From a virus, in IMG/VR virus record IMGVR_UViG_3300033489_000136, positions 1-42,188 of that record: a DNA stretch of 42,188 bases. One strand, written 5' to 3'. Under the pieces are notes generated by a model. The model searched no databases, was not told the DNA's origin, and was given only the letters and a program-made list of their open reading frames with translations. Positions 1 through 42,188 of the stretch are shown one piece after another (positions within the stretch are counted from its first letter, which is position 1; every line of letters starts with the position of its first letter). A program made the position numbers and the translations under genes.

Positions 1-127
1 GGAACAAGAATTGGACCTTTTGTAGCATCAGTCGAGAATGGCTATGTTCGAGGAGCAGATGCTCTGTTCCGAGCAGGAGTAGAACTGGTAGTATCTCCTA
101 TTAAGGGCAGCTTCTGGCTTGCGGGTG
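1..127. repeat. Terminal direct repeat (left copy); overlap of a circular contig
   Basis: nt 1-127 match nt 42062-42188 base for base on reading. The reading frame is continuous through it. Confidence 0.9.
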
Positions 128-3100
128 CAGGCTACCAGATACCTAAGACTATCACTCAAATGAGCAGAAACTTTGCTCGTCAGGCAAGTATGAACTTTAA
201 GTCTGTGCTGGATAGAGCGTTTCCACAGGTGAAGAATTTGGTGGGCTTAACTGCTAAGGATATTAGAGACACCGCCTCCGCCTGCATAGACGCTGCTATT
301 GCTAGACCAACTGAAGGTGGAGACTTAATGGTTCGGGCAGGTAGCAATATGCTAGAGTTCGATGCTCTGGATACATTAGCTGCAAAGAAGCTACTTAAGG
401 GCATAGCAGATGACTTTGAGTTTGATGTTCCTTCCTTAGCAAGGTTGAATGATGAAGTGCTGAATATGTTCTCGGGGCAGCCTGCTAAGATGACTGCTGG
501 AAAGATTCTTGGCAACCTAGCTATTAACCAGACTGATGAAGTGGTAGAAAAGGTTGTGAAGCAACTTGCTACTTTTAAGGACGATGTTGTAGCTAAGGCG
601 AAGGCTATGTTCAGTTCTGATAAATCTGCTGACCAACTTATCGGCATGTTTGAGAAACTGTCTGAAACTAGATATGCTAACCTTGCCTCTCCGATAGCCA
701 CTCATCTGAACCAAGCAGGAATGTCAGTATCGTGGGTCAGCCGAGTGGCAGATAAGGTATTGCAGTCAACTGGGTTGGTGACTCTGGAGAGAAAAGCCAT
801 TATGCCATTTGCTCGCTGGAACTTACTGTTTATGAACTTTGGACCTATGAACTTCTTTGAGAATATGCAACGAAGTTTCCTTGGTGGTGGAGAGCTAATG
901 TACCCTAAGGCTTATGGAGGATTAGCTGAAACCAACAGGCTATTCAGAGGTCTGACCAATGCTCCTTATGAGTTGCAGATGGCAGAACGTGGAGCGCAGA
1001 GGTTGGAGATGGCTCTGGTTGACCCTAAGACTGGGGTTACTAATGCCTTCCGAGGAGGCAAGATTCCCTTTGTAACTAAGGAAGTTAACATCAGAGGTCA
1101 TGTCATTGGTAAGAAGATTAACATCCGAGGTAAGGACTTTAAGCTAACTGATTTCCAGTCCTACAACGATATGTGGGAGGAGATGACTACTCTACAAAGA
1201 GCCTATGACTACCAAGTACATTATATGAAGGCTCTGCCAGAGACTGCCTCAGAAGAGATGCGGATGATTGTAGAGGCAGTTGACAGCAGGATTAACTCCT
1301 TGAAGGGTATGAAGGGGTTAAGCAACTCCGATATTCAGGACATCCGCAGAACTGCAATATCTACATCTACTGTAGGACCTGATGAGTTTCGTCATATGGC
1401 TGACCTGGACGTACTGGAATTGCAGAAGCGTATGATTTCAAAGGAACTTGGCAAGACCTTTGACAAGTGTACCGAAGTAGCTAGCTTCTCCAAAAAGGGC
1501 ATCAGGGACGATGTACTTGATGGTAGCATCTTTAAGGATATAAAAGTTAGGATTGATGCTAGAAAGCAGGAAGCTAGAGAGATGTCATTGGCCTCTCTAG
1601 CTAACCAGATTGATGCGCTGAAGTCCGAAGCCGACAACATGATTAAGGCTTACACGAATACTGGAACACTGCTGGATGAACTTAGTCAGGATATAGCTTT
1701 GGGGACTCCTACACGTAGAGGAGTACCTGCTATGAAGTATAACGAATATCCTATTACTCTAAGTGGTAATGATGTTGGCAGTATTATGATGTATGAATCT
1801 ACAGTTAATCCTGGAGAGTTCATAGTGGATAAAATAAGTATAACTAAAGCTGGTACTCTTAACAGGCGAACATTGCAAGATATTGAACTCTTGATTCATA
1901 ATACTGCTAGGAGTAAGGGTGCTACTACAGTCACTGTTATGCCTAAGCCTAACCATAAGGCTCTGTATGAACTAGGTGGATATAGCAAGACTGCTGTAGG
2001 CTACTCTAAAGCAACCAAGAGTCCTCTATCCAGAGCACCAAAAAGTATTGATGAACTCCTCACAGATATGGATAACATCTCTGCGATGCAGAATGCCATT
2101 GATGAGAGGATTCATGACTACCGCAGATTAGTAGAACTCCGCTCTGCCAAACTGACTCCTGGTAAGGAAGTGGACGACTTCCACGTAGGCTCTAACAAAC
2201 TGATGTCCGAGTTTATGGACTCGGCTAGAGCAGATATGAACCGCATTATAGACCAGACGAATGACTTCCTATCTAGCAGACCTGTAATATATGGACCTAA
2301 GGGGGAGAAGCTACCTACTCTGCAAATTACTGATGCTCAGACTTCTGCTGCAAAGGCTATCAATGAAATCTACAGGCAGGAGACTGCCAATGTCCTGAAT
2401 ACAAGAAATAGACTGGCAGCAGTTGAGGCAAGAATTCCTAAGACTCCTCCAGCTAAAAGAAATGCCCGCTTCTGGCAGCAGCAACGGGCAGAGAAGGCTA
2501 GTATCTGGGATGAGCATGAACTTGCTGCAAGGAGACTGCATAATCTTCAGATGGACTCTAGCCGCCAGTTCCTTAGCTCTGTGGGCAAGACTCCGTTTGT
2601 CCCTGCTCAGATACCAGCAGTAACAGGCAAGCTGACTCCGAGCCATATTGCCCATCTATTTGGAGTAACAGGAGATGACACTTACAGAGGGCTAACAAGA
2701 ATTCATACTCAAGTAACTGTCAGACCAAAGGAAGAGTGGGTTGACTACGTGAAGAATCAAGCTAATGCCTATGCGCAGAAGTTTCAGAAAACTGCCATAG
2801 ATATAGGCTTTACTGACGAGGCAATAGGAGATGTCTATGACCAACTGTGGCGGAATCTTGGGATTGAGCCAAGTATATTAACTCCTGACTCTCCTACTAT
2901 GCTCCAGTTTGATGAGATAGAGGCAGAGCTAACTCGTCTTCATGCAGCAGTTAAGATGGATGAGACTGACATAGCTAAGTGGAGGCAGTTTAATCAGGGT
3001 ATGGCAGATGACTTAGAGAAGATGCCAATGTACCAGAAGGCTGCGCCTGCTATGGTAGCAGATACTCCAGAATCTATAGCAGAGCGTCTTGGCTCTAAGT

Positions 3101-6000
3101 ACAACGGTATGCAAGAAATGCCTGCTCCTGAGGCTCCTATGATGATGTTCACTGATGATGTTACTGGCTCTACATATCTTGCCAGAAACTTTGATGAAGC
3201 CCTAGAAGCTCTTACTGATATGAGAAGGAACTTTGGGGCTGCTGCTCCAGAAGTTAAGCCTCTAGCTGTTCCTGCACGAGGAGGTTCTGATGATTGGTGG
3301 GCTAAGAAAGAACTCGCCATGACTGAAGCTCGCAAGCAGCATGAACTTGCCTACCCGACCTACGATGATGCTAATATAATAGATGAGTCCATGCGAGCTA
3401 TCTTCCCGTTCTGGACATACGAGCAGTTCCGATGGAGATGGCTACCTCGAACATTCATGCGAACTCCAGGCACACTTACTAATCTTGGAAGATTTATGGA
3501 CTACTGCGTTCCTATATCCTACAGAGCCTTAACTAGAAATGGATGGAAGTACTATGATGAGCTAACTGTAGGTGAGGATGTTATGGTAGTTAATCCTGTA
3601 ACTTTAGAGTCTTACTGGAGTCCTCTAAAGGCTGTTAATGTTTTTCCTGCTAGTGATAGGAATATGGTTAGTATTCCTAAACATGGAGGTGGTATATTAT
3701 GTACTCAAGAGCACAGTTGGTTAGTTAGGAGCAAACTTGGAGATTTATCCATACGTAAGGCTAAAGATATAACTGAGCAATACTATGGTATTCCTACCGT
3801 AACAGACTTTGCATTTCCTTCTGGTAGCATCCTATCTCCTAAGGATGCGGCTACTCTAGGGTGGCTAGTAACTGACGGTAGTTATAAGCAAGGAATTATT
3901 TATCAGAAAAAAGCTGAATTTGTGTTTAATATTGAAGTAGAGTTAGGTATCACACCTACTCACTCTAATAGCAATGGGGTACTTAGCTTCTACGTACCTA
4001 AAGCAAAGTTAAGAGAGTTACTATCCATATGCCCTGATAAGACGAATCTTCCTAGCATTGTAAGTAAGCTAGATAAAGATTCGTCAGAAGCAATGTGGAA
4101 CGCTATGATGAGCGCAGAAGGAAACTCAAATGGAGCATTAGAGTTTAGGTCATTTGCTCAGAAGCCAGGACCTGTTCTTGATGCCTTCACTATGCTAAGT
4201 ATTATGTTAGGTTATAAGATATCTATTGAACATACTGACGGAACTAAAGTATGTTCAATAGTCCATATCTGGAAATATAAGAACGATAAACCTTGGAGAA
4301 GAGTTTCTACTAAGAAATATACTGATGCAGTCTGGTGTCCTACTGTAGAGACTGGTGTGTGGATTATGGATGCAGGCGGGCAAATTCTTCCTACAGGAAA
4401 CACTGATGGAGGCTATATCAATGTACCTGGTACTGACCTCCAAATCAACCCTCTCAGAGGCAGCATCTGGATGGGCGGTATGCGCCGATTCTTCCTTAAA
4501 GACTTTCCTGAGTATTATGATAAGTTTCCTGGTGCAGAGCTTATAGACTACATTGGTCGGGCAGGCTTCTATCCTGGCATACATATCACAGGTCTCCAGA
4601 CTCTCTTTGGCGCAGCTACTGGTAAGCCTGAACTCAACGAGCTAGTTCCTACCTGGATGCAGACAGGTTTATCTGCACTCCGAGCCTTATCTCCAGAACA
4701 TATGGGCAAGGTAATAGACTACATCTTCCCTGACCGCTTCCGTGACTACCAGACAATGCTAACACTCGGTGAGTGGGGCTATGATGCAGACGAAATCTGG
4801 AATAAGAAGTATCAGGGGCAGAAGCTTACTCCTGAGGAGGAGAGCCTGTGGCTAAGGGCAGAAGCCCAAGCAAATGGATTGAAAGGTATTCTCATGGAGC
4901 AGACTGGTATGTTCAGAATCCGTCCGCAAGAATACGATGATATGCAGAAGGAGATGAAACTCGCTATTCAGGATGCTACTGGTGTATCCGTAGCAACCCA
5001 GAATCGCATTGACCGCCTGTATCCTATCACTGGTAAGAGATTCTCTGACTACTATAAACTTGATGTCCTGCAAACTAAACTTCTGTATGAGTCTGAATCC
5101 TACCGCCGTTGGCAGGGAGTTACGACTCCTCTCTATCCTTCCTCTTGGCAAGCACTGGAAGTTAAGATTAAGGAGTACTGGGATACTCTGGAGAAGAACT
5201 CCACTGATGCCAGACGTAACGGAGTCTATGATGCTGAAGGGGAGTTGAAATATCCTTCTATTGTTGAAATCAACCGACAGTTTGTAACAGGCGAGATAGG
5301 TCCTGACCAATGGAAATCCTTACGGGAGAATATCATGTCAGGACTGGCGGAAGCTGCCGATGCACTGGCAAAGTCTCCTGCCTACGCTGATGTACCTAAG
5401 ACTCTAGAGGAGCGTGAGGCATGGCTAAGGGAGAAAGGTATCCTGACTCCTACCTACGGCGCAGACCAAGAACTGCTTTGGTATTACTACCAGCTTGAGC
5501 CTGAGTTAGCATACAACTGGGACTCTGACCGTATGGAACTGGATTGGGATACCTACTATGCAAAGGTTGATATGCTTATGGAGAGTCTAACTGAGCCTTA
5601 TCGCCAGCGTCTCCTTGATAGGATTCAGCTTGACTGGACTCCGATGGAAAGACTCTACTGGACTGCAAGTAGAAATTACTTTCGCCCTTACCGCAATATC
5701 CGTACAATAGTTCTAAATCAATATACTGATGAAGAGCGTGGGCAGATTCGCAGGTATGAAGTAGCCAGAGGCGAAGAGCGTGAGGCTTTGCAGGATATAA
5801 TCGGCTCTGATGGTCAGAAGCTCATAGCAGGCTTCAATGCAAGAGTTCGTGAGGCTCGGCAGAAGCTCCGCTACATTGACTCTGACCTTGATGCTTGGTC
5901 TTACTTCTTTGGCAATACTGATAGCTTCATAACTGCTATAGCGGAAGAGAAGTATAATGAACTTGTTAAGCAATATATGAATGAAAGTATGGTACAGTAA
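1..6000 (+). CDS. Giant virion-associated multidomain protein, C-terminal 1,999 codons (continuation of 40841..42188 across the circular junction); intein-containing
   Basis: Frame 1 is open from nt 1, with no stop before the listed Met at 160. It is the same frame as the ORF leaving the window at 42188 once the 127-bp overlap is removed. Stop TAA at 5998-6000. The gene lies between portal and scaffold. Confidence 0.8.
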   Translation, partial: GTRIGPFVASVENGYVRGADALFRAGVELVVSPIKGSFWLAGAGYQIPKTITQMSRNFARQASMNFKSVLDRAFPQVKNLVGLTAKDIRDTASACIDAAIARPTEGGDLMVRAGSNMLEFDALDTLAAKKLLKGIADDFEFDVPSLARLNDEVLNMFSGQPAKMTAGKILGNLAINQTDEVVEKVVKQLATFKDDVVAKAKAMFSSDKSADQLIGMFEKLSETRYANLASPIATHLNQAGMSVSWVSRVADKVLQSTGLVTLERKAIMPFARWNLLFMNFGPMNFFENMQRSFLGGGELMYPKAYGGLAETNRLFRGLTNAPYELQMAERGAQRLEMALVDPKTGVTNAFRGGKIPFVTKEVNIRGHVIGKKINIRGKDFKLTDFQSYNDMWEEMTTLQRAYDYQVHYMKALPETASEEMRMIVEAVDSRINSLKGMKGLSNSDIQDIRRTAISTSTVGPDEFRHMADLDVLELQKRMISKELGKTFDKCTEVASFSKKGIRDDVLDGSIFKDIKVRIDARKQEAREMSLASLANQIDALKSEADNMIKAYTNTGTLLDELSQDIALGTPTRRGVPAMKYNEYPITLSGNDVGSIMMYESTVNPGEFIVDKISITKAGTLNRRTLQDIELLIHNTARSKGATTVTVMPKPNHKALYELGGYSKTAVGYSKATKSPLSRAPKSIDELLTDMDNISAMQNAIDERIHDYRRLVELRSAKLTPGKEVDDFHVGSNKLMSEFMDSARADMNRIIDQTNDFLSSRPVIYGPKGEKLPTLQITDAQTSAAKAINEIYRQETANVLNTRNRLAAVEARIPKTPPAKRNARFWQQQRAEKASIWDEHELAARRLHNLQMDSSRQFLSSVGKTPFVPAQIPAVTGKLTPSHIAHLFGVTGDDTYRGLTRIHTQVTVRPKEEWVDYVKNQANAYAQKFQKTAIDIGFTDEAIGDVYDQLWRNLGIEPSILTPDSPTMLQFDEIEAELTRLHAAVKMDETDIAKWRQFNQGMADDLEKMPMYQKAAPAMVADTPESIAERLGSKYNGMQEMPAPEAPMMMFTDDVTGSTYLARNFDEALEALTDMRRNFGAAAPEVKPLAVPARGGSDDWWAKKELAMTEARKQHELAYPTYDDANIIDESMRAIFPFWTYEQFRWRWLPRTFMRTPGTLTNLGRFMDYCVPISYRALTRNGWKYYDELTVGEDVMVVNPVTLESYWSPLKAVNVFPASDRNMVSIPKHGGGILCTQEHSWLVRSKLGDLSIRKAKDITEQYYGIPTVTDFAFPSGSILSPKDAATLGWLVTDGSYKQGIIYQKKAEFVFNIEVELGITPTHSNSNGVLSFYVPKAKLRELLSICPDKTNLPSIVSKLDKDSSEAMWNAMMSAEGNSNGALEFRSFAQKPGPVLDAFTMLSIMLGYKISIEHTDGTKVCSIVHIWKYKNDKPWRRVSTKKYTDAVWCPTVETGVWIMDAGGQILPTGNTDGGYINVPGTDLQINPLRGSIWMGGMRRFFLKDFPEYYDKFPGAELIDYIGRAGFYPGIHITGLQTLFGAATGKPELNELVPTWMQTGLSALRALSPEHMGKVIDYIFPDRFRDYQTMLTLGEWGYDADEIWNKKYQGQKLTPEEESLWLRAEAQANGLKGILMEQTGMFRIRPQEYDDMQKEMKLAIQDATGVSVATQNRIDRLYPITGKRFSDYYKLDVLQTKLLYESESYRRWQGVTTPLYPSSWQALEVKIKEYWDTLEKNSTDARRNGVYDAEGELKYPSIVEINRQFVTGEIGPDQWKSLRENIMSGLAEAADALAKSPAYADVPKTLEEREAWLREKGILTPTYGADQELLWYYYQLEPELAYNWDSDRMELDWDTYYAKVDMLMESLTEPYRQRLLDRIQLDWTPMERLYWTASRNYFRPYRNIRTIVLNQYTDEERGQIRRYEVARGEEREALQDIIGSDGQKLIAGFNARVREARQKLRYIDSDLDAWSYFFGNTDSFITAIAEEKYNELVKQYMNESMVQ
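3505..4401 (+). mobile_element. Intein (299 aa) with LAGLIDADG-type homing endonuclease domain, inserted in the giant protein
   Basis: Starts with Cys (..FMDY/CVPISYRALT). Block B TxxH is present (ILCTQEHSW). LAGLIDADG-like motifs are LGWLVTDGSY and WNAMMSAEGN. Block F-like VWCPTVETGVWIMDAGG. Ends ..ILPTGN followed by +1 Thr (TDGGY). The segment is visibly more AT-rich than the flanking extein. Confidence 0.8.
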
Positions 6001-6105: not shown

Positions 6106-6771
6106 ATGCCAGAGAAGAATCAACAGGATGCTCCTAACAGTAATGACCAGAATCCAGCACAGCCTCCACCTGCCAAAGCCGAACCTAAGGTAGAAGTTAA
6201 AGATGGTAAGGTACTGGTAGATGGTAAGAGCTATGTTAAGGAATCTGACCTCATGGCTGCGAAGGAGAGTTTGACTAAGCAACTGGAAACTGCCCAGCAG
6301 ACCCACAACTCAGCGATAGATTCTCTAAAGCTGGAAGTGTCTGCTGCTCAGACTGAAGTTGCTAAGGCAAACGCTGCTCTTGAAGAGGCAAAAAAAGCCC
6401 GTACTTCGGGTGACATCTCCGCAGAGGACTTGTCGAAAGCAAAGCAGGAAGCAGAAACTGCTAAGACAGAACTTACTAAAGCTCAGACTGCCAACCTTGA
6501 CTATCGGCGGAAGTACATCCTCATCGCCTATAATATTCCGCCTAACTCTGATGTTGGTAAGTCCTTAGCAGACAAGACACCTGCTCAACTGGACGCTTTA
6601 GAGGAAGCACTCAAGGCGTTGCAGGTAAAAGGCTCAGGACCTGGTAACTATGCTGTCGGAGGCGGTGGAAGCGGAACAACTCCTCCAACTGCTATGGACA
6701 GAGCAAGGGACATCCTTAGCAAGACTCCCTACCGAGGAACCAGAAATGAAGCTCCTAATCCTGCAAAATAA
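6106..6771 (+). CDS. Scaffolding protein (putative)
   Basis: 221 aa, Ala/Glu/Lys-rich with coiled-coil character and Pro/Gly-rich ends. It sits immediately upstream of the major capsid gene. RBS GAGGAGGG. Confidence 0.6.
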   Translation: MPEKNQQDAPNSNDQNPAQPPPAKAEPKVEVKDGKVLVDGKSYVKESDLMAAKESLTKQLETAQQTHNSAIDSLKLEVSAAQTEVAKANAALEEAKKARTSGDISAEDLSKAKQEAETAKTELTKAQTANLDYRRKYILIAYNIPPNSDVGKSLADKTPAQLDALEEALKALQVKGSGPGNYAVGGGGSGTTPPTAMDRARDILSKTPYRGTRNEAPNPAK

Positions 6772-6795: not shown

Positions 6796-7875
6796 ATGGC
6801 GGATTCTGGTGGGCACTGGAAAACACTTGCCGAAGCCCAGAAACTCACTCAGTCCCTTAAAATTCCTGGAGTCTTCGAGGAAGATATCAAGCGCAACAAC
6901 CCGATTGAAAGGATAACAGTCGGGCAGGCTGCGAAGACGGGACTGAAAGTAGAGTGGCTTCGGGAGAAGACTACAACCGAAGATGCCGTAGCCGAAACTG
7001 ACATCGGCGACCAGCTTTCCTGGTCTGATGATGTGGAGTATGAAGAGAAAGAAATGACTCTTCGCAGACTCTATATCCAGCGCAAGCTGGACAAGTATGT
7101 GGAAGGCATCTACGGCAATATCAATAACTATGAGGCGAGAGTTCTGCTCGAGTCTGAGAAAGGTCTTAAGCGGAAACTCGGCGCAAGGCTTATCTATGCC
7201 GATACAACCTATGGAGGAACTCCAACCCAGTTCGATGGCTATCATGCTCTGGCAGCAGAGCATGGCACTCCTTATACTGCTGGCTCTGCCTACGACCCGA
7301 AGAATATTGATGGTGGAGAAGCAGGTCTATCTCTGAATCTACTCCGTGAACTCCTTGACGAAATGAAGCATGGAGTGGATGAGATTCTTGCCCCTTACCA
7401 GATTATTCGGCGCATGGACGCAGCCTATCAGGAGAAGGGCTTTGCTGGTCTCGCCTACAATGTGGCAGGCAACCTTGCCTTCCTGACAATGGGCTACAAT
7501 GAACTGGGCAAGAGGGTGCTGTTCTGGGATGGTGCTCCCATCATCCGCACTGACTACCTCGTAGCCGAGCAAGCGAACACTGGCACTGGTGCCTCGTCCG
7601 ATGCCAGAGCACTGCATACCAGTGGGGATAAGCAGTACTCCATCTTCGCCGTCAAGTACGGCATGGTGATGAATGGAGAGGAAAATCCTGGACTCCAGTT
7701 TGCCTATGGCGGAACTGAAGGACAGGGCGACTTGTACAAACTTGTCCGCTTCCCCGAACTGGAAGACTACGATGCAGGCGGTATCCGTCTGGTTACCTAC
7801 GGCGGAGTCCTACTCGGCTCAAGCCTGTGCTTGGGCAGAATCTACGACATCGAAGATGTAGCAATCACTGTATAG
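6796..7875 (+). CDS. Major capsid protein (HK97-fold-like, putative)
   Basis: 359 aa, directly after the scaffold gene. RBS AAGGAG. Size and sequence character are typical of HK97-like capsid proteins. The call rests on position plus pattern, with no search. Confidence 0.65.
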   Translation: MADSGGHWKTLAEAQKLTQSLKIPGVFEEDIKRNNPIERITVGQAAKTGLKVEWLREKTTTEDAVAETDIGDQLSWSDDVEYEEKEMTLRRLYIQRKLDKYVEGIYGNINNYEARVLLESEKGLKRKLGARLIYADTTYGGTPTQFDGYHALAAEHGTPYTAGSAYDPKNIDGGEAGLSLNLLRELLDEMKHGVDEILAPYQIIRRMDAAYQEKGFAGLAYNVAGNLAFLTMGYNELGKRVLFWDGAPIIRTDYLVAEQANTGTGASSDARALHTSGDKQYSIFAVKYGMVMNGEENPGLQFAYGGTEGQGDLYKLVRFPELEDYDAGGIRLVTYGGVLLGSSLCLGRIYDIEDVAITV

Positions 7876-9486: not shown

Positions 9487-9858
9487 ATGAAAGGTGCATG
9501 GAAAACTGCATTAGTAGATATTGACCGAGCAGTGGAGTTCAGTGGAGATGATGTAGACCGATTCTCCAAGCTCGTTGACTTGGGAAAGGGATTCAAGGAT
9601 GTGCTGGTATTGATTCCAGCACTGAACGCCTCAGCAGTTGTATCCGTCTATGTTCAGAAAGGTTCAGGAGTTGATGAGGTTCCTGTAGCACTTGCAATTC
9701 TGGATGATGATGCTACTGGTCACTTTGCTCATGCCACTACCTCTGGTGCAGGCAGCATTGCAATTATCTTCCATATCGGAGGTGCAGAGTTTATCCGTAT
9801 CTACTGCGGTGCAGACCAGGTGGCAGACCGTTCCTTCAGCGTTATGGGTTCTGATTAA
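9487..9858 (+). CDS. Virion structural protein (head-tail connector region)
   Basis: 123 aa ORF, RBS TAGGAGG, tightly packed in the late operon. Confidence 0.5.
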   Translation: MKGAWKTALVDIDRAVEFSGDDVDRFSKLVDLGKGFKDVLVLIPALNASAVVSVYVQKGSGVDEVPVALAILDDDATGHFAHATTSGAGSIAIIFHIGGAEFIRIYCGADQVADRSFSVMGSD

Positions 9859-9868
9859 GGAGACTTTT

Positions 9869-10117
9869 ATGGGCTGGAATGAGTTGGTGCTAGTACCTCG
9901 TATTGATGCTATTTTCAGAAAACAGAAGAAGCGGTACAAGGTTCAGTGGGTAGCATCTACATATCCGCAGATACGAATCCAGTATGAGGAATCTATTCCA
10001 CTTGCTGCTGCTCAGGAGATAATATCTTTGTTTCCTGATTCAGTATATGTTGAGTTGATTCCTCATATTCAGTTTGCCGAAGATGCAAAGAATCTTCCAG
10101 TGGAGTTCAGGAAGTAA
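9869..10117 (+). CDS. Virion-module protein
   Basis: ATG 9869 after TAAGGAG. It is in frame with track ORF 9692..10117, whose upstream part overlaps the previous gene. Confidence 0.5.
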   Translation: MGWNELVLVPRIDAIFRKQKKRYKVQWVASTYPQIRIQYEESIPLAAAQEIISLFPDSVYVELIPHIQFAEDAKNLPVEFRK

Positions 10118-17727: not shown

Positions 17728-18042
17728 TCAATACCTTCTCTTGAATGTATGAAAGAAAATAATCCAGTTAGGCTGATAGCCTTTGTTTGGATGTATCTGC
17801 CTCCACTCAGCAATAAACTCCTCAGTTGTGTTGCAACCTTCCTCCTCGTAATGGAACGCAGCAACTTCACCTAGTCTCATCTTCTTTACTGAAGTAATCT
17901 CACAATATCCATCCTTTACCTGAAAGAAATCTCCTACATTACCGTACTGAGTAGGTCTGCTAGTGGCAGTCTTCTTTCCTGATAAACACATAACTGCATT
18001 GTTCGGGCGCATAGGGATATGGACTAATCTTGGCTGATTCAT
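17728..18042 (-). CDS. ASCH/PUA-like domain protein (putative)
   Basis: 104 aa. The pattern AVMCLSGKKTATSRP..GDFFQVKDG..CEITSVKKMRLGEV...EEFIAEWRQIHP resembles ASCH-domain proteins. Confidence 0.4.
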   Translation of the reverse strand: MNQPRLVHIPMRPNNAVMCLSGKKTATSRPTQYGNVGDFFQVKDGYCEITSVKKMRLGEVAAFHYEEEGCNTTEEFIAEWRQIHPNKGYQPNWIIFFHTFKRRY

Positions 18043-18045
18043 ACT

Positions 18046-19746
18046 TCACTCCCAACGGAACGTACTTTTCATCTCAAACGGAACTCTGAAGCCTGGGAAA
18101 ATATGCTCTAACTCATCCTTTGGCACTCTATCTAATACATCTCCATCCCATGTAAATGAGTCATGTACTGTAATAACTAACGGCTCTTTATCATTAGGTC
18201 CTAGCCTTCTGTTATTGCAAAGTATGAGTGCTCTCTTACATACTTCTCCGTCACTTCCCAAAATAGGATAATTCACTGCTTTCCTTTTCATCTCGTTGAC
18301 TGATTCCTCTGGCAACCGTATGCGTCTTCCGAACAATGTAGGTAATGCCCACCCGTCTCGGAGTCCTTCTCTCTGTGCATGGATAATCCAGTCCGCTGCT
18401 CCTCTATAAGCTCTGAACCAGCCTTCTAGCAAGTCCTCACATCTTCGTCTGTCCTGCGTCTTTAACTGCTCCATCAGTGTTTCAGCCGTAGCTCCATACA
18501 GGACTGCGAAGTTACATACCTTAGCCAGCTTTCGGGGTACTCTCATCAGGTCAGCAGTGTGTTGGTGGATGTCTGCCTTCTGCGGGTCAGGATTGTAGAG
18601 AACATCTAGCATCGTCTTGTCTTGAGACATGGAGGCGAGAATGTAGAGGTGTTCACGGCTGAAGTCGCCGCTGGTAAATACTCCGTTATCTGGTATAAGC
18701 ATAAACCTTGCACCTGGGTCACCTGTATCCTTATCTGCACCTGGGATATTCTGGATATTCCTGTTGCGACTATTGAGTCGTCCTACATCAGTGTCTGGGT
18801 AGTACTCTGTATAAAAACGGTCTTCACCTTTTAATGGAATAAGATAGGTGTTCAAAAACTTGCTATTCTTCCTGTATCCAATTACTCCAGCAGCCAGAGG
18901 GTCGTCAAGGAACTCTAAATCCTTTTCACGAGTACGCAGTTGTCTTTTCGATTTTGTAAACTTAAGGAAGCTGCCACGCTTAGCAAGGGTATAGCCGACT
19001 TGCTGTGAACTGCCAGGATTGCTAATTCCATAGCCTTGAACTATTCTTCGGTACATCTCTACCTTCTGTGCATACTTATCCTCTAGCTCCTGCCTAGCCT
19101 GCTGGTCTATGGCAATTCCGTGCATAGACATATCTTTGAGGATTGGAACGACTGCCATTTCCACTTTGAAATACTCGCCGTACCTGTCATATATCTTTTG
19201 TTTCCATTCGAGGTAGAGCGTGTAGGTAGCCTTTACATCAGCAGCGCAGTGGTCTGCTAATAACATAGGATTCTTCTTTATGAGTTGTATGTTATCAGTA
19301 CAGCCATTCTCCTTCATTATCTCACCCATGCCTACAGTATGGCAGTTAAACTCGGCAGCGAGAATAGGTAAGGATGTTTCTCGGTAGCCTAGTAGCCTTG
19401 CTGCAACGTTGGTGTCGAATATGTTAGCTCTGTCAAGTGATTCACCGATAACTGGAATGAGGGGAAAGACTCCCATATCAAAGACCCAATTATGGGCAAT
19501 CTTTACAATGCGTACATCACTGACAAACTTCCTCAATGCCTCGAGAGCTTTAACATTTGGTTCTGGGTACAGGCTAAAGTAGAAGCTCTCCTGCGGACTG
19601 AACGCTATGCCTATGCCAACTGGATGTCTCTCATCTAGACTAATGGTTTCAATGTCTAGTGCAACTGCTGATGGGCGATTCTGCTCCCAGTATATCCAGC
19701 GGTCATCAGCCTTAGCATCTGGGAAGCCATAGTAGAACACACTCAT
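18046..19746 (-). CDS. Family A DNA polymerase with 3'-5' exonuclease domain
   Basis: Exo motifs are LDIETISL, HNWVFDMGV and HCAADVKATY. Pol motif A-like is SGDFSREHLYILA. Motif B is KLAKVCNFAVLYGAT. Motif C is VITVHDSF. Confidence 0.85.
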   Translation of the reverse strand: MSVFYYGFPDAKADDRWIYWEQNRPSAVALDIETISLDERHPVGIGIAFSPQESFYFSLYPEPNVKALEALRKFVSDVRIVKIAHNWVFDMGVFPLIPVIGESLDRANIFDTNVAARLLGYRETSLPILAAEFNCHTVGMGEIMKENGCTDNIQLIKKNPMLLADHCAADVKATYTLYLEWKQKIYDRYGEYFKVEMAVVPILKDMSMHGIAIDQQARQELEDKYAQKVEMYRRIVQGYGISNPGSSQQVGYTLAKRGSFLKFTKSKRQLRTREKDLEFLDDPLAAGVIGYRKNSKFLNTYLIPLKGEDRFYTEYYPDTDVGRLNSRNRNIQNIPGADKDTGDPGARFMLIPDNGVFTSGDFSREHLYILASMSQDKTMLDVLYNPDPQKADIHQHTADLMRVPRKLAKVCNFAVLYGATAETLMEQLKTQDRRRCEDLLEGWFRAYRGAADWIIHAQREGLRDGWALPTLFGRRIRLPEESVNEMKRKAVNYPILGSDGEVCKRALILCNNRRLGPNDKEPLVITVHDSFTWDGDVLDRVPKDELEHIFPGFRVPFEMKSTFRWE

Positions 19747-19753
19747 TATTTCC

Positions 19754-20146
19754 TCACAATACTGTATTAACTAGCATACCGTCAATATTCTCTATGATTC
19801 TTTTTATTCCAGCAGTCTTCATCACTTGTAAGCAGTTGTGGCAGGCTTCTGGTCTTTCCAGTCCATATATATAAACATCTGCTCCATGAACTGAAATACC
19901 AAACTTTGCAGCCTGACATACTGCATTGACTTCTGCATGAATGGCTCTTTGACAGTGGTTTGACTCTATTAAGCATCCAGCCTCTATGCAGTGCGATTCT
20001 CCAGAGGGTGCTCCGTTATACCCTGTAGATATAATCCGATTATCCTTTACAATTACTGCTCCGACTGATGCTCTTGAACAGGTTGCTCTTGTTGATACAT
20101 CCTTGGCAATCTGCATGAAGTAATGTTCCCAATCTGGTCTTTCCAT
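19754..20146 (-). CDS. dCMP (deoxycytidylate) deaminase
   Basis: Zinc-binding motifs HAEVNA and PEACHNC are present, with an N-terminus RPDWEHYFMQIAKDVS typical of the family. ATG 20146 follows AAGGAG. The track start at 20176 is a TTG. Confidence 0.8.
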   Translation of the reverse strand: MERPDWEHYFMQIAKDVSTRATCSRASVGAVIVKDNRIISTGYNGAPSGESHCIEAGCLIESNHCQRAIHAEVNAVCQAAKFGISVHGADVYIYGLERPEACHNCLQVMKTAGIKRIIENIDGMLVNTVL

Positions 20147-20199
20147 TTTGTCTCCTTCCGAAATTTCAATTTTCAAAAATAGGTCACAGTAGCATTAAG

Positions 20200-22438: not shown

Positions 22439-22440
22439 TA

Positions 22441-23028: not shown

Positions 23029-23037
23029 TATTCTCCT

Positions 23038-23550: not shown

Positions 23551-23604
23551 ATTTTATTCCTTGCTCCAGACACCATGACTCTAAGCCAAACTTGCAGTGT
23601 TCCA

Positions 23605-26090: not shown

Positions 26091-26100
26091 ACCTGGCTAC

Positions 26101-37140: not shown

Positions 37141-37389
37141 ATGGAGTCAGCAGTACTTGAGGCTTTGGTAACTGGTGGACCTGTGGCGGTTCTTGCAGGA
37201 ATTATCTTCATCATGTATGTTAGGCATAGGAATAACTCAGAGAAGTGCCAGCGTGATGACAGAGTATTCATGGAGGATAGGCTAACAAAGATAATTGAGA
37301 GCGAACAGAGAACAAGAGAAGATAATACAAAGGCTATAACGGAACTGAATGTTCTTCTCAAAACTTTGAATGGCAGAAGTAAAGGGTAA
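37141..37389 (+). CDS. Small membrane protein (N-terminal TM helix plus charged helix)
   Basis: 82 aa, RBS AAGGAG. The TM segment is VTGGPVAVLAGIIFIMYV. Confidence 0.5.
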   Translation: MESAVLEALVTGGPVAVLAGIIFIMYVRHRNNSEKCQRDDRVFMEDRLTKIIESEQRTREDNTKAITELNVLLKTLNGRSKG

Positions 37390-37390
37390 T

Positions 37391-39091
37391 ATGGCAGTAG
37401 TGCAGATTTCGCAAGAAGAAGCCATGAGGCGGTTGTTCTCAAACCGCAAACTTACTCTTGAGACACTGCTAGAGATTGAGGATAAGAGCAGGCAACTTGT
37501 GCCTATGAAGCTCAATCCTATCCAGGCGGATGTGATTGACACCTCCACATGGAGAGACATCTATGTTAAGCCTGGGCAGATAGGATTTACTTCAGTTGTC
37601 GGCGGAGACTTCCTCATCGACAATGTTACTATAAATGGCACTGTGTCAGTCATTATCAGCTATGATGAGTTCTCGGCGCAGAGGCTTCTGCTCAAAGCTA
37701 AGAAGTATCATCAATCCTTGCAGAGGAAGATTCCTTCCATTCCTGACCTAGACCACAAGTCAAGCACTGAACTTAGCTTTGTTAATAAGGAGAGAGGATT
37801 CTACTCTACATTCTACATCTTCTCCGCCCGAGGTTATGTACTCGGCAGAGGTGAGACAATTCACAATCTGCTATGTGATGAGTATGCGTTCTGGCCTCCT
37901 GGCACTCATGAGCAAGTATTTGCCTCGGCGGTGCAGAGAGTACCCCTGAAGGCAGGAACAAAAATCCGTATTGGGTCTACGGCTAATGGAGAAGAGAATC
38001 CCTTTTGCGAGATGTATAAGGCAGCGAGAGAAGGCTATGCCATAGGTTCTGGACTTAGCCGTTCAGTCTACAAGCCTCACTTCTATCCTTGGTTCATTCA
38101 TCCAGAATATGTAATGTACCCTGATGATACTTTTGTGCTAGATGGAGATGAGGCAGAACCGCTGAAGAATATGTCTGATGTAGAAGTCCAACTAATGAAA
38201 AAACTTACCGAAGTATTTGACTTTGAGCCTCAGTTGGCTATGGCTAAACTCCGCTGGAGAAGATACAAGCAAGCCGAGATGAGGTCACTACATAGGTCTG
38301 GGCAGACGGTATTTATCTTCAATCAGGAGTATCCTGAGGATGATGAGAGTTGTTTTCTTACCGCAGGTAACCAAGCCTACTCAACTGATATAATAGAGCA
38401 GAAGGTGAGGACTTGCTACCCTGCACCGATTGTCCATGCCTTCACGAATAAGAAAACTGGAGCGTCTGCGGAGGCACAGATTTGGGAAGATGCGCAAGTT
38501 GGGCTGCCTTATCTGATAGGTATTGACCCAGGCAAGGGCAAGCAGTCCGAATCAGTTGCTCATGTGTGGCACTTTGAGGAGGGTTATCAGGATAAGGAAG
38601 GCAAGGACATTCCTCCAGTACTTAAGCATGTAGCAACACTGTCAGGCTGGTATGACGAGTGGGAGATGGCAGAGTATGTTAAATCACTTGGCTACCACTT
38701 TAATACGGCGGTACTCTGTCCTGAAGACAATCTTGATATTGTGTCTCACCTGCGTGATTATCCTGCGCTTTATTATCGGGAGGATATGCGCACAGGCAAG
38801 GGCATCAGGGCAATCGGTTGGCAGACTAATACTTCCACCAAGCCTTACATGCTGACTGAACTTAACCGCCACATGGAGGACGTTGAGTGCCATGACCAGA
38901 GATTCTGGTCTCAGTGCAAGAACATCCGCAGGGATGCTTCTATGAAATACGGAATCTCTGTAGTTGGAGCTGACGACCACCATGACGCAGGCGCAATAGC
39001 AGTGTGTTGCCGAGGAGTGCAAGCAGTACAGGTTGGTTATGCAGGGAATACAGGAGACTCAGGTGGCTGGAATGATACTTGGGGCAAGTAG
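37391..39091 (+). CDS. terL: Terminase large subunit
   Basis: Lies immediately upstream of the portal. P-loop-like VKPGQIGFTS. Nuclease-domain-like YLIGIDPGKGK and VVGADDHHDAGAIA. ATG 37391 follows the upstream stop, and ATG 37370 is an in-frame alternative. Confidence 0.8.
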   Translation: MAVVQISQEEAMRRLFSNRKLTLETLLEIEDKSRQLVPMKLNPIQADVIDTSTWRDIYVKPGQIGFTSVVGGDFLIDNVTINGTVSVIISYDEFSAQRLLLKAKKYHQSLQRKIPSIPDLDHKSSTELSFVNKERGFYSTFYIFSARGYVLGRGETIHNLLCDEYAFWPPGTHEQVFASAVQRVPLKAGTKIRIGSTANGEENPFCEMYKAAREGYAIGSGLSRSVYKPHFYPWFIHPEYVMYPDDTFVLDGDEAEPLKNMSDVEVQLMKKLTEVFDFEPQLAMAKLRWRRYKQAEMRSLHRSGQTVFIFNQEYPEDDESCFLTAGNQAYSTDIIEQKVRTCYPAPIVHAFTNKKTGASAEAQIWEDAQVGLPYLIGIDPGKGKQSESVAHVWHFEEGYQDKEGKDIPPVLKHVATLSGWYDEWEMAEYVKSLGYHFNTAVLCPEDNLDIVSHLRDYPALYYREDMRTGKGIRAIGWQTNTSTKPYMLTELNRHMEDVECHDQRFWSQCKNIRRDASMKYGISVVGADDHHDAGAIAVCCRGVQAVQVGYAGNTGDSGGWNDTWGK

Positions 39092-39100: not shown

Positions 39101-40831
39101 ATGCTAGTTAAGAATAGCGCAAAAGAAGTAATCGCCAAGTGTAATGAGTTGCAGCAGTTCTGGGCGCCTCGTAATGCCAAGATGCAGCAGTGGTACAGGC
39201 TTATCCAGATGGTAGATGACCTGAAAACCGAGAAAATGGAGTCATTCGTTGGCAATGACCCGAGGAGTATATTTAACTTAGTTCTCCATATGCTTGACTG
39301 TACTGTACCGCATAGACTGGCAAATCCTGACCTGCTAGGCATGGAGGCTGCAACGGCTTCTGCTGAGATAACCAGATTCTACGACACTGCCTGGCTAGAT
39401 GTTGAGACTGAGTTTAGACGTACAGGTCCGAGACAGAGCTTTAAGCGGAGTCTGATAGGTCTGCTCCTTGCTACAGGCTGGTATAGCCTATTTACTATTG
39501 TAGCAGATGATGGAAGCAAGGTCTTTGCTGACCTCTGGAATCCTGCACAAGTCTTTCCTATGTGGGATATGGAGATGGGACTGTCCGAGTGTGCACATGT
39601 TTACCCTTGTTCTGACCGTAGGGCAAAGAGTATGCAGCAAAGAAATGGCTGGCAAGACTTAGGCGCACTGCATGGAGACCAGACTGTGCATGATTACTGG
39701 TGGGTAGAGATTGATATGGCATTTCCTTTCTCCACTAGAGTATGGAACGCTGTAGTTGTAGCAGGCAAGCTTGTAAAGTATGAGCCTACACGATTCAAGA
39801 GGATTCCGATTTATGTTGCACCTATAGGTGGACTGCCTGATACTGGAGCTTTGTCTGAAGGAGTATCCCTGTCTACATCCTCTTACAATGCAGGTAGCAT
39901 GACTAAAGGGGACAGGTGGAAGGAAGAAATAGGACAGAGCCTTATAGCTACTAACGAGAATATCTACAAGGCTTGGAATAAGTGGTGGACATTCAGTCTG
40001 CAACTACTGCGGGATACTGCTCAACCGAGAATATTTGAGAGGAGTAGAAGTGGCAAGGCAATAGTCAAGCCTGAAGATGTATTCAGAAGAGGCGCTATCT
40101 TCCGAGGCGGAGCAGATGATGCAGTTGAGTTCATCGGTGCGCCTCCAATGCCTCTGGAACTTCGCTCGACTCAACTTGACCTTGAAGCTATGATGCAAAG
40201 AGGAGGAGTCAGTTGGGCTATGTATGGTAATGTAACTGGAGAGCTAACCAGTTATGTTATGAGCCAGATATCTGCCTCTGCCAATCAGGTAATGAAACCT
40301 TACCAGCAGGCATTGCAGAACCTCTTTGCTGATGTTGATAATGACTGGCTGGAGGACATCCGAACTCGAGGTGTCAGACCGTACAACTGGGAGATTCCTA
40401 AGGCAGTACCTGATGATGCCAAGATTACCGCTAAGTTTGAAGTTGAAATACCTGGAGATTTAATTCAGCGGGCAACTGCTGCTAGAATGATTGACCCGAA
40501 CTTTGCTCTCAGCTATACCTACGTGGTGAGCAAGCTATTTCCAGAGATTAAGAATCCATTACAGGAGAGAGCACTGAGACTGGCTGATATGGCTGAGTTG
40601 TCGCTTGAGAACGCTACAATAGCTAAGATAAGATATTATCGCAAGCAGGCTGCATTTATGGCTAAGACTGATGCAGATGCAGCAAGACTGTATGACTTAG
40701 CAGCAGAAGCAGCAGAAGCTATGCTTAATCCTATTGCTGCAAAGAAGACAACAGAAGAACGTCAACCGCCTGGTACTGGTAATAGGGCTGAGAATACTCC
40801 ACAACAGCCAGCAGACCAGATGCCGATGTAG
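39101..40831 (+). CDS. Portal protein
   Basis: 576 aa, RBS TAGGAGG. Directly downstream of terL with a typical size and an acidic/Ala-rich C-terminal tail. Confidence 0.7.
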   Translation: MLVKNSAKEVIAKCNELQQFWAPRNAKMQQWYRLIQMVDDLKTEKMESFVGNDPRSIFNLVLHMLDCTVPHRLANPDLLGMEAATASAEITRFYDTAWLDVETEFRRTGPRQSFKRSLIGLLLATGWYSLFTIVADDGSKVFADLWNPAQVFPMWDMEMGLSECAHVYPCSDRRAKSMQQRNGWQDLGALHGDQTVHDYWWVEIDMAFPFSTRVWNAVVVAGKLVKYEPTRFKRIPIYVAPIGGLPDTGALSEGVSLSTSSYNAGSMTKGDRWKEEIGQSLIATNENIYKAWNKWWTFSLQLLRDTAQPRIFERSRSGKAIVKPEDVFRRGAIFRGGADDAVEFIGAPPMPLELRSTQLDLEAMMQRGGVSWAMYGNVTGELTSYVMSQISASANQVMKPYQQALQNLFADVDNDWLEDIRTRGVRPYNWEIPKAVPDDAKITAKFEVEIPGDLIQRATAARMIDPNFALSYTYVVSKLFPEIKNPLQERALRLADMAELSLENATIAKIRYYRKQAAFMAKTDADAARLYDLAAEAAEAMLNPIAAKKTTEERQPPGTGNRAENTPQQPADQMPM

Positions 40832-40840
40832 GAGGACATT

Positions 40841-42188
40841 ATGCCTTTAGAGGATATTGCACCAAAGGTTAAGAAGCCTACTGTTTCCTTTGGCTTAGGG
40901 CAGGAAGAGCCGAAGAAGGAAGAGACTACAACTCCGACTGATGCTACAAAGTTGCCTGAGACTGTTCAGCCTACCGAATACTTTGAAGGGTATAAATGGC
41001 AACTGGAAAGATGGTCTTTGCGTGCTGCTGACTGGAATGCTATTGTTACGAAGGCTTATAAAGACATAGAAGTTCTTACAGGTGCTATTAGGAATCCTCT
41101 GACTCTGTGGTTCAGGAGAAGCCAGTACCAGCGGAACTTAAAGCAGCGCCAGGCAGACCTTGATGCTGCTCTACAACAGCTAGCAGGCATGGAGTGGAGG
41201 CTTCAGGTTCTGCACACTTTGCCAGCATACTTTGCAAGCACTAAATTTACTATAAATAATCTAGATGATGTGATGAATCTCATTCCTAATGAGTTAGCCA
41301 GTGACATTGACATGGACTGGTTGCAGGATACTTATGACCGAATGAGCTATCTAAACAATAAACTACCAGAGGAATATGAAGGCTCGGTGTCTGAAAGCCA
41401 AGAGATGATTCTTAATGAGATATTAAAAGAGCCTAAGCTAGAGACTAAGTCTCTGCATAATCTAACGGTAGACGAGTTGGCTAAGTACTTTACTCCAATG
41501 GCTGCGGAACTGCCAGAGAGTATGACAATAGAGCAGGTACGTAGCGTCTTGTCTCGTGTTGAACTTGACTCTGAAGCGGATATAGAGCTATCTGCTTGGC
41601 TTATTGGTAGAGCTAGAGATTGGGCAGTAGAGACTGATAGGCTTAATCTTATCAAGGCAGGCATTACTGAGACTGCTGATATTGATTTGACTCCAAGCGA
41701 GTTCTTCAACGCCCTGCTTGTTCAACCTTTCATGGCAACAACTGAACTGTTGGATAAGTACTTTAGTCTAGTTGCTAGACCTTTAGCTGGCGCTGCTGTC
41801 ATAGGATTTCATAGACTATTCAACACTCCTGAAGATACAATGGCTGCCGAGATGTCCCGAAAGTATGATGCCTACCGAGAGAGTGGCGAAAACGCTTGGA
41901 ATTCCTTATCCTTAGCAGTTAGTGAGACCGAGATGCCTTGGTATACTCGGATGCTTATCGAAGGAGCCTTTGACCCAACTACATACATAGGTATAGGTAT
42001 AGCTCCTGCTCTTGCAACTAAAGCGGGAACAATGCTTACCAAGATAGGTGTAAGAGGACTAGGAACAAGAATTGGACCTTTTGTAGCATCAGTCGAGAAT
42101 GGCTATGTTCGAGGAGCAGATGCTCTGTTCCGAGCAGGAGTAGAACTGGTAGTATCTCCTATTAAGGGCAGCTTCTGGCTTGCGGGTG
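40841..42188 (+). CDS. Giant virion-associated multidomain protein, N-terminal part (runs off the window and continues at nt 128 via the circular junction)
   Basis: ATG 40841 lies 5 nt after AGGAGG. I read no stop codon in this frame through 42188. The last 127 nt duplicate nt 1-127. Confidence 0.8.
   Translation, partial: MPLEDIAPKVKKPTVSFGLGQEEPKKEETTTPTDATKLPETVQPTEYFEGYKWQLERWSLRAADWNAIVTKAYKDIEVLTGAIRNPLTLWFRRSQYQRNLKQRQADLDAALQQLAGMEWRLQVLHTLPAYFASTKFTINNLDDVMNLIPNELASDIDMDWLQDTYDRMSYLNNKLPEEYEGSVSESQEMILNEILKEPKLETKSLHNLTVDELAKYFTPMAAELPESMTIEQVRSVLSRVELDSEADIELSAWLIGRARDWAVETDRLNLIKAGITETADIDLTPSEFFNALLVQPFMATTELLDKYFSLVARPLAGAAVIGFHRLFNTPEDTMAAEMSRKYDAYRESGENAWNSLSLAVSETEMPWYTRMLIEGAFDPTTYIGIGIAPALATKAGTMLTKIGVRGLGTRIGPFVASVENGYVRGADALFRAGVELVVSPIKGSFWLAG
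42062..42188. repeat. Terminal direct repeat (right copy)
   Basis: Identical to nt 1-127. Confidence 0.9.

Follow-up and report, generated by a model that had tools for sequence, protein, structure and literature searches.

The virus record IMGVR_UViG_3300033489_000136 of IMG/VR, positions 1 to 42,188 of which were analyzed here as a single stretch of DNA (referred to as the window), raises the question of whether two reading frames left open at its opposite ends belong to one gene and, if so, what a protein of such size would do for a phage when encoded directly between the putative portal and putative scaffold genes. The analysis revealed one continuous gene of 2,406 codons, which is interrupted only by the arbitrary ends of the contig and which harbors a predicted intein of 299 amino acids (aa). 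Its product, referred to here as the giant protein, appears to found a large, unnamed family, the ~1,900-aa backbone of which is specific to it, and we propose that it is probably packaged in the capsid and ejected at infection, combining genome delivery with the carriage of effector domains.

The first 127 nucleotides (nt) of the window (nt 1-127) equal the last 127 (nt 42062-42188), this being the longest terminal overlap, and closure of the sequence on it produces a circle of 42,061 nt. Upon translation of the circularized sequence, the open reading frame (ORF) which starts at ATG 40841 stays open across the junction and ends at TAA 5998-6000, comprising 407 + 1,999 = 2,406 codons. The gene measures 7,221 nt, equivalent to 17.2% of the 42,061-nt genome, and its ATG is located 9 nt from the stop codon of an upstream 576-aa ORF. 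The features involved are the following:

40841..42188, plus strand: giant ORF, 5' part (codons 1-407, ending at 42061; start ATG 40841)
1..6000, plus strand: giant ORF, 3' part (codons 408-2406, then TAA 5998-6000)
40830..40835, plus strand: Shine-Dalgarno sequence AGGAGG, 5 nt (ACATT) before ATG 40841 and overlapping the upstream stop TAG 40829-40831
1..127 (= 42062-42188), no strand: terminal direct repeat inside coding sequence, an overlap left by the assembly of a genome that is circular or circularly permuted

The first-pass annotation, which was made from the letters of the window without database searches, had described this frame across the contig ends, and all of its figures for the ORF were confirmed when the sequence was re-circularized and translated. 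The chance probability that 2,406 codons stay open is ~1e-50 (given 3 stops in 64 codons), and an identical 2,406-aa protein (P0001) is already on record, being encoded on a linear 14,777-bp Logan contig from run SRR10376092. Comparison of this contig with the circularized window revealed 0 mismatches from position 34178 through the junction to position ~6893, with the 127-nt segment present once. The contig represents an independent assembly, not necessarily an independent sample, and because it is linear and spans the join without a mismatch, the junction is not merely inferred from the overlap; support across the junction, which the first-pass annotation had suggested seeking in reads, is in this way provided by a separately assembled contig. 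The ORF list of the linear window contains only the 1,946-aa tail of the gene (160..6000). Genes cut by contig ends drop out of six-frame and gene-call tracks, and the same problem affects three near-complete IMG/VR relatives of 41.8-42.3 kb (L019, L028, and L040), in which the giant gene is likewise cut by the contig ends.

The giant family, its backbone, and its cassette slots

Homology searches returned 29 full-length homologs of 41-68% identity, which align end to end with the giant protein, including the join region at full occupancy, and a second, word-indexed search, started from the family alignment, yielded no others. When a profile of the 605-aa C-terminal module (delimited below) was applied in an exhaustive search, 483 representative clusters (at 50% identity) were retrieved with E values of <1e-3, 335 of them below 1e-30, and among the best 150 listed, nearly all full-length matches carry the module at the C terminus. 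The retrieved sequences include 144 long members of 1,752-3,283 aa (median, 2,114 aa). The possibility that the giant gene is naturally divided into smaller genes was considered and rejected: the short matches are contig-end fragments or internal-Met calls, and immediately upstream of the sole apparent gene split (L008) lies a run of N. Within IMG/VR, 40 viral contigs encode relatives, the complete-looking ones measuring 41.7-43.4 kb, and the sources of relatives include marine sediment, Tara Oceans, and other environmental metagenomes.

No match to the giant protein was obtained in Pfam and PHROGs, searched with the whole protein and with seven overlapping segments, in the PDB sequences (by phmmer and by profile), or in 50,697 GenBank phage records searched by tblastn with both halves. 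No source consulted gives a name for the family, and literature searches, which were not aimed at the family, gave no description of it. One-sixth of a phage genome is, in other words, a single gene which no library names, and the same is true of at least 483 clusters in public metagenomes. A search of 185,579 species genomes for a prophage copy found none, its only match being a mislabeled phage contig which offers no clue to the host; a bacterial (peptidoglycan-walled) host is nevertheless implied, because relatives carry peptidoglycan hydrolases. This contig, a 43,776-bp record filed as "MAG: uncultured archaeon" (MAG, metagenome-assembled genome; L004, CAYPUO010000001.1), contains in the same order TerL, a putative portal gene, a giant gene (2,026 aa), and a capsid protein gene and looks like a complete phage genome of the same lineage.

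Structure models were generated with AlphaFold2 for residues 1-1100 (mean predicted local distance difference test score [pLDDT], 66; predicted template modeling score [pTM], 0.32) and for the spliced residues 1101-2406 (64 and 0.35, respectively), and both modeled halves are almost entirely alpha-helical. The anatomy of the protein outside the intein, numbered on the precursor, is as follows:

40841..40975, plus strand: N-terminal ~45 aa, predicted disordered (pLDDT ~31) and of low conservation; the slot of glucosaminidase or SLT domains in relatives
aa 46-965, plus strand: helical modules, with confident stretches at 50-170, 300-370, and 460-650
730..1029 (aa 651-750), plus strand: most conserved block of the N-terminal half, '...ARWNLLFMNFGPMNFFENMQRSFLGGG...', identity 0.72-0.73, pLDDT 44-50 over much of it
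1675..2034 (aa ~966-1085), plus strand: cassette slot V1, a small alpha/beta domain of predicted GNAT-like fold, pLDDT 77-87
aa 1100-1395, plus strand: helical middle module with the near-invariant motif TGDDxYRGLTR
2965..3285 (aa ~1396-1502), plus strand: cassette slot V3, here a short, poorly modeled insert shared with P0005
3286..3504, plus strand: flank of the most conserved block on the N-extein side, '...FPFWTYEQFRWRWLPRTFMRTPGT...RFMDY', with invariant columns and low pLDDT
4402..5997 (aa 1875-2406), plus strand: C-extein, which together with 3286-3504 forms the 605-aa C-terminal module of the whole family

The homologs have the N-terminal consensus "MPxxP" in common, and the last ~300 aa of the protein form a confidently modeled helical tail (pLDDT 70-90). 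The block targeted by the intein (aa 1503-1575 plus 1875 onward) reads FPFWxYExFRWRWxPRTxMRTPGT...DY/TDGGYxPVPGTDLQxNPLRGSxWMGG and is modeled with a pLDDT of <50. The two most conserved blocks of the protein (730-1029 and 3286-3504 plus 4402-4900), which are rich in Trp, Phe, Tyr, Gly, Pro, and Arg, are those modeled worst (pLDDT <50). Such a combination of high conservation and low model confidence suggests that these blocks may fold only in an oligomer or on a partner.

Alignment of the 144 long members to the family profile by hmmalign yielded 194 inserts of at least 80 aa, with at least one present in 127 of the 144. Five insert hot spots were evident, namely, the N terminus (60 inserts, in as many of the 144 members), V1 (17), V2, located after ~residue 1171 (35), V3 (69), and the intein block (8). 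Clustering of the non-intein inserts by sequence gave 99 clusters, within which slot position may differ from one member to another. Together with the slot contents given below, the architecture of the family is that of a fixed backbone offering a few defined slots to swappable enzymatic domains.

The content of the slots in relatives was assigned by Pfam where possible. Among 19 large members, five carry an N-terminal glucosaminidase (best E value, 1.6e-23; the domain occurs in P0030 and P0069), two carry an SLT domain (E value, 8e-12), and two carry ART-PolyVal (E value, 7e-10), which was also detected in one sub-threshold case, while a D12 N6-adenine DNA methylase cassette was recognized with an E value of 6.6e-20. 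Slot V3 accommodates D12 methylase, ART-PolyVal, ParB-like, and other domains in relatives. Ten representative cassettes gave mostly nothing in Pfam, with weak hints of WLM (E value, 0.0045), ParB_N (0.0017), and SLT_3 (0.05). The commonest optional cassette, which occupies slot V2 in 19 members (P0027, P0035, P0037, P0041, P0042, and P0054 among them), contains HExxH in 17 of the 19. It has no Pfam match and is absent from the giant protein of the window; judged by its motif, it may be a zincin-like peptidase of a new kind, reminiscent of the processing peptidases found in polyvalent proteins.

The V1 cassette of the window is present in about half of the close homologs and is replaced by another domain in P0023. 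When the modeled N-terminal half was compared with the PDB by Foldseek, this cassette gave the only match, its best partner among GNAT acetyltransferases being 3exn (E value, 4.9e-3; probability, 1.00; template modeling score [TM], ~0.45; ~100 residues). Across all its GNAT matches the probability is 1.00, but E values range from 5e-3 to 4e-2 and TM from 0.4 to 0.54, over ~100 of ~160 residues. The acetyl-CoA pyrophosphate-binding loop of GNAT enzymes has the form Q/R-x-x-G-x-G/A. The cassette has no Pfam match and no such acetyl-CoA loop motif, displaying instead a conserved "L-N-R-R-x-M-Q-D" without the Gly-rich loop. Based on the model, V1 is best described as GNAT-like in fold, and it would be the sole recognizable cassette of the window's giant protein. 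The first-pass annotation had noted by eye an intein and a weak GNAT-like stretch in an otherwise dark protein, and this description has held, with exact boundaries now available for the intein, ~110 aa assigned to the GNAT-like fold, and no other match obtained.

An intein in the most conserved block

The second recognizable insertion lies within the C-terminal module and is represented by the following features:

3505..4401, plus strand: intein with a LAGLIDADG homing-endonuclease domain, 299 aa, C1576..N1874, with T1875 as the +1 residue
~3853-3882 and 4105-4137, plus strand: LAGLIDADG motifs of the intein, LGWLVTDGS and MMSAEGN, with the acidic residues kept

Residues C1576..N1874 are missing in 29 of 29 close homologs, the flanks of which join exactly (MAFFT alignment of 30 proteins). 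The splice flanks are ...RFMDY and TDGGY..., corresponding to (F/Y)xDY and (T/S)D(G/Q)GY in the family, with Thr or Ser at the +1 position in every sequence, and the insertion site coincides with the most conserved stretch of the entire giant protein. The expected junction residues are present, i.e., Cys1, the block B TxxH motif (TQEH), the terminal Asn, and the +1 Thr, all of which are invariant or conservatively replaced in 15 aligned intein relatives. The penultimate residue is Gly rather than His in all 15 relatives; some inteins use residues other than a penultimate His, so that Gly is not disqualifying (PMC2807308). Matches to sequence models are weak: a Pfam scan of the query intein gave no match even at an E value of <10, a related intein in P0010 matched PF14890 at an E value of 4.4e-5 with 23.8 bits, under the 35.8-bit cut-off, and the best PDB profile match was a bacterial intein-like domain with an E value of 0.38. 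For this reason, the assignment is based on the precision of the indel, on the residues at the junctions, and on the evidence of mobility described below, from which the 299-aa insertion appears to be a genuine LAGLIDADG intein. Its excision would convert the 272-kDa precursor into a spliced product of 2,107 aa and 239 kDa with an acidic isoelectric point (pI) of 5.3, in agreement with the spliced length given in the first-pass annotation.

The intein also displays the WCT triplet, comprising Trp at B:12 ("TQEHSW"), Cys at F:4 ("VWCP"), and Thr at G:5 ("PTGN," +1 T). Across the 15 relatives, W and C do not vary, either T or S occupies G:5, and Cys1 is found in all. The WCT triplet combined with a +1 Ser or Thr is the signature of class 3 inteins (Tori et al., PMC2807308), which are defined by an absent N-terminal nucleophile, an N-terminal Cys occurring in just 3 of the 37 WCT inteins listed (PMC2807308). 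The intein of the window resembles that class in the positions of W, C, and T, the Thr at +1, the block B TxxH, the terminal Asn, and the two LAGLIDADG motifs, whereas it differs in the presence of Cys1, in the penultimate Gly, and in its host, a non-ATPase putative virion protein. Because Cys1 is kept despite the WCT triplet, the intein is not assignable to class 3 by sequence, and the combination of Cys1, WCT, and penultimate Gly bears on the relation between the class 1 and class 3 splicing mechanisms.

Related inteins, ~38% identical where aligned, are carried by 8 of the 144 long family members, in three cases after ...MDY, in four after ...FPFW, and in one three residues further. The three insertion points fall within ~30 residues of one another (aa ~1533-1890; 3376-3504 plus 4402-4450), as seen in the window and in P0010, P0014, P0057, P0065, P0082, P0093, and P0171. 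Such a distribution appears to reflect repeated switching between sites of one host protein, as opposed to the occupation of one allelic site. Intein relatives bounded by C...[T/S]GN / [T/C/S] also occur in unrelated proteins, including SAM-dependent methyltransferases, and one of them is named "Hint domain-containing protein" by NCBI. The intein family as sampled here (P0010, P0014, P0057, P0082, P0171, and P0179-P0193) spans at least four unrelated host proteins, and its invariants are Cys1, the block B T..H.W, the block F Cys, the block G T/S-G-N, and the LAGLIDADG acidic residues. The G+C content of the intein is 0.39-0.41, compared to 0.45-0.49 in neighboring parts of the gene, and a dip to 0.40-0.41 is also evident in the GNAT-like cassette (1675-2034); the low G+C content fits a later acquisition of both. 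The presence of inteins at three sites within 30 residues would mark a functionally critical part of a 2,100-aa dark protein, and conditional splicing could turn the giant protein on or off, providing an experimental handle.

Packaging and ejection weighed against other roles

The genes surrounding the giant gene bear directly on its possible role and are the following:

37370..39091, plus strand: TerL (phrog_2; E value, 6.8e-12)
39101..40831, plus strand: putative portal, 576 aa, labeled by position and size only
6106..6771, plus strand: putative scaffold, 221 aa, labeled by position only, with synteny in relatives
6796..7875, plus strand: major capsid protein (phrog_212; E value, 2.6e-12; ~28% identity to annotated capsid proteins)

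TerL and the capsid protein are the only structural genes identified by homology. The 576-aa ORF yielded no portal match in Pfam, PHROGs, the PDB (searched with the single sequence and with a four-sequence profile), or GenBank phages (tblastn), and hhalign revealed no similarity to two annotated podovirus portals. The remaining ORFs for head and tail are for the most part as dark as the 576-aa ORF. The order of TerL, a 570- to 600-aa ORF, the giant gene, a ~200-aa ORF, and the capsid protein gene is shared by the window and by the contigs of P0022, P0009, and P0030, the last being a distant relative at 24-36% identity. The portal-scaffold slot proposed in the first-pass annotation stands with respect to gene order, which is kept in these three diverged relatives, whereas the portal and scaffold labels themselves are positional only.

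It is proposed, and considered fairly probable, that the giant protein is packaged in the capsid and ejected. The intein would splice itself out, joining "...RFMDY" to "TDGGY..." and releasing a helical protein, which would be built into the procapsid alongside the portal and the scaffold and kept within the head until infection, when it would leave by way of the portal and tail. The ejected protein would then help the DNA to cross the envelope, perhaps as a conduit, much as ejection proteins operate in short-tailed phages, and would deliver its enzymatic cassette, here the GNAT-like domain and in relatives a muramidase/transglycosylase, an ADP-ribosyltransferase, a DNA methylase, or an HExxH or ParB-like domain.

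The case for ejection is circumstantial and is derived from several independent lines. Packaging and ejection are supported by the location of the gene, because it adjoins the putative portal gene, which is the slot of the MuF/SPP1 gp7 proteins, MuF domains being known fusion platforms for injected effectors (PMC5512222). They are likewise supported because ART-PolyVal and DNA methylase cassettes are typical injected cargo, and the occurrence of cell-wall hydrolases and host-modifying enzymes on one giant head-module protein represents a signature of packaged and injected proteins (PMC5512222). Cell-wall hydrolases at the N terminus, as found in relatives, are understandable only in a protein that exits the particle and on this account point to ejection; in T7 gp16, a helical body similarly bears a transglycosylase at its N terminus as an optional part (PMC8954989). 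Virions of phi24B contain an abundant 2,811-aa polyvalent protein, which is a proposed ejection protein (bioRxiv 10.64898/2026.04.10.717836). Packaging and ejection are also favored because the structural module offers no other candidate for an ejection or tape-measure protein, its other plus-strand ORFs being of at most 599 aa and none of them tape-measure-like. The spliced protein is, moreover, helical in both modeled halves and little conserved beyond its lineage, and its 2,107 aa are close to the sum of T7 gp14, gp15, and gp16 (196 + 747 + 1,318 = 2,261 aa). The virion-internal or ejected multidomain protein envisaged in the first-pass annotation is, as far as sequence can tell, supported by the hydrolase, ART-PolyVal, and methylase cassettes of the homologs.

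Comparison with known systems suggests that the giant protein would work in the manner of polyvalent and ejection proteins while being a member of no defined family. With the polyvalent proteins (Iyer et al. 2017, PMC5512222) it has in common that one giant chain is specified by a gene located amid the virion genes of a portal-terminase phage, and its family likewise combines unrelated enzymatic domains, the window's member having only one recognizable cassette; unlike them, the family is built on a conserved backbone of ~1,900 aa with fixed slots and not as a string of shuffled domains. It shows no detectable MuF, LPD, or other signature domain of the LPD/MuF polyvalent proteins (e.g., phi24B gp47, 2,811 aa), and the gene shares with those of SPP1 gp7 and Mu F the slot directly downstream of the (putative) portal gene, although no Phage_Mu_F match was obtained. 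The giant protein is ~6-7 times longer than a typical MuF protein. The likeness to T7 gp14/15/16 and P22 gp7/20/16 resides in a largely helical nature and poor conservation outside the lineage (PMC8954989). An N-terminal peptidoglycan hydrolase, as in T7 gp16, is optional in the giant family too and is absent from the window's protein. The T7 and P22 ejection proteins are three, whereas here one polypeptide is found, supplemented by exchangeable effector cassettes; no sequence or fold similarity to the T7 proteins was detected, the T7 core proteins being absent among the PDB Foldseek matches listed.

Several points weigh against packaging and ejection. Both are deduced from sequence and context for an uncultured lineage, which is absent from 50,697 GenBank phage records. 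No homology to known ejection or polyvalent proteins was found, nor a MuF or LPD domain (Pfam, PHROGs, and hhalign at <1%); the family profile gave an hhalign probability of 0.2% against the 2,807-aa LPD5 protein of an Stx phage and of ≤0.5% against T7 gp15 and gp16, and the polyvalent-fusion background given in the first-pass annotation is to be corrected in that the protein is not of the MuF/LPD type. The ejection or giant genes of T7-like and Stx phages come after the tail genes and not beside the portal gene; the LPD5 gene of Stx phages is located at the far end of the late region, whereas the giant gene adjoins the putative portal gene and, unlike the T7 and P22 ejection genes, sits between it and the putative scaffold gene. 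The window's giant protein has no cell-wall hydrolase, and its GNAT-like cassette has no clear acetyl-CoA loop. No strong transmembrane helix was found, the maximal 19-residue Kyte-Doolittle mean being 1.16 outside the intein. The models are of only moderate confidence (mean pLDDT, 64-66; pTM, 0.32-0.35), and Foldseek searches with the helical parts gave nothing significant, the best matches being at an E value of 0.4 in the PDB and of 0.019, at a probability of 0.2, in BFVD. Lastly, a short tail is something to which just the similarity of TerL to podoviruses and the lack of a tape-measure-like ORF point.

An unlikely alternative is that the giant protein is internal to the head and is not ejected, being a core, inner-body, or scaffold-like protein which organizes DNA or nucleates the procapsid on the portal, with its cassettes acting inside the particle or being removed by proteolysis. 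The conserved position between the putative portal and putative scaffold genes and the helical, acidic nature of the protein (pI 5.3) would suit such a role, and the HExxH cassettes of many relatives could serve maturation cleavage. However, the targets of the muramidase/transglycosylase, ART, and methylase cassettes lie outside the particle (cell wall, host proteins, and DNA), and the N-terminal cell-wall hydrolases are, as argued above, sensible only for a protein which exits the capsid.

The location of the intein raises another possibility, which we consider quite improbable, namely, that the backbone is an unrecognized enzyme or motor, such as a virion polymerase, translocase, or nuclease, the active site of which is marked by the intein sites. 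Three such sites do cluster in the most conserved block, within a stretch of ~30 aa. The catalytic motifs of nucleic acid enzymes are the usual location of inteins, and those with the WCT signature were at first encountered mainly in ATPase or helicase motifs (PMC2807308). Phage N4 has a giant virion RNA polymerase (cited in PMC5512222), and no RNA polymerase gene was recognized among the ORFs of the window that were scanned. The presence of an intein does not, however, imply an enzyme, given that portal, minor capsid, and tape-measure proteins of phages harbor inteins as well (bioRxiv 10.1101/2025.01.02.630785). Furthermore, the spliced protein contains none of the motifs sought by regular expression (DxDGD, T7-like polymerase, P-loop, DEAD, and HExxH), neither Pfam nor the PDB nor a fold comparison gave a match, and the columns which are invariant in distant members are mostly Trp, Tyr, Phe, Pro, Gly, or Arg, which are not typical catalytic residues.

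A role as the tape-measure or another tail protein of a long-tailed phage appears very unlikely. The protein is very long and helical, its relatives embed peptidoglycan hydrolases, no other ORF of tape-measure size is present, and the weak BFVD matches of the C-terminal half do include tape-measure proteins. These matches, however, are non-significant (probability ≤0.35; TM ~0.1) and consist of generic long helical proteins, with a "large polyvalent protein" and internal virion proteins also among them, so that they do not constitute evidence. The gene lies in the head module, upstream of the scaffold and capsid protein genes, in every genome examined, and no frameshifted chaperone pair precedes it. 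A tape measure of 2,107 aa at 1.5 Angstrom/residue would specify a tail of ~300 nm on a 42-kb genome, whereas the nearest relatives of TerL are podoviruses (Stx-converting phages and uncultured "Podoviridae sp."; 24-28% identity by tblastn). Whole-protein homology to a tape-measure or polymerase family, which the first-pass annotation had named as grounds for reclassification, was not found in Pfam, PHROGs, or the PDB or by Foldseek.

The weakest alternative, that the long ORF is an artefact of a mis-circularized or chimeric assembly or a decayed pseudogene, can appeal to a gene cut by the contig ends and joined on a 127-nt overlap but may be practically dismissed in view of the separate linear 14,777-nt contig with 0 mismatches over the join, the identical protein on record, the homologs aligned end to end over the join, and the minute chance of such an open run (~1e-50).

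If the giant protein is indeed packaged and injected, it would represent a new, sequence-independent family beside the MuF/LPD polyvalent proteins and the T7/P22 ejection proteins, as well as a natural fixed backbone displaying swappable effectors at defined positions. The family would then also be a source of new antidefense or host-takeover domains, most of the 99 insert clusters being unannotated. An extension of the packaged and ejected protein, which we put forward tentatively and regard as rather doubtful, is that the ~1,900-aa backbone is a self-contained delivery machine replacing the three-protein T7/P22 ejectosome and serving in addition as a chassis for injected effectors, with its conserved blocks refolding on exit to engage the portal, membrane, or DNA, and with the family marking a large clade of uncultured bacterial viruses of ~42 kb. 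Giant packaged phage proteins are already known; what is unexpected is the size of the dark family, its fixed-slot architecture, and its triple targeting by inteins.

Neighboring genes

Scans of the window for tRNAs and Rfam families were empty. A minus-strand replication module (17728-36225) runs opposite to the structural module and includes the following predicted genes:

18046-19746, minus strand: family A DNA polymerase with 3'-5' exonuclease
20200-21060, minus strand: N6/N4 DNA methylase
21623-22438, minus strand: helix-hairpin-helix protein
27829-28800, minus strand: AAA_25 helicase-like protein

On the plus strand, positions 9487-10117 were considered as a candidate tail-chaperone frameshift pair and rejected, as the second ORF has its own ATG at ~9869 just after the stop of the first; two ordinary small genes would be the simpler reading.

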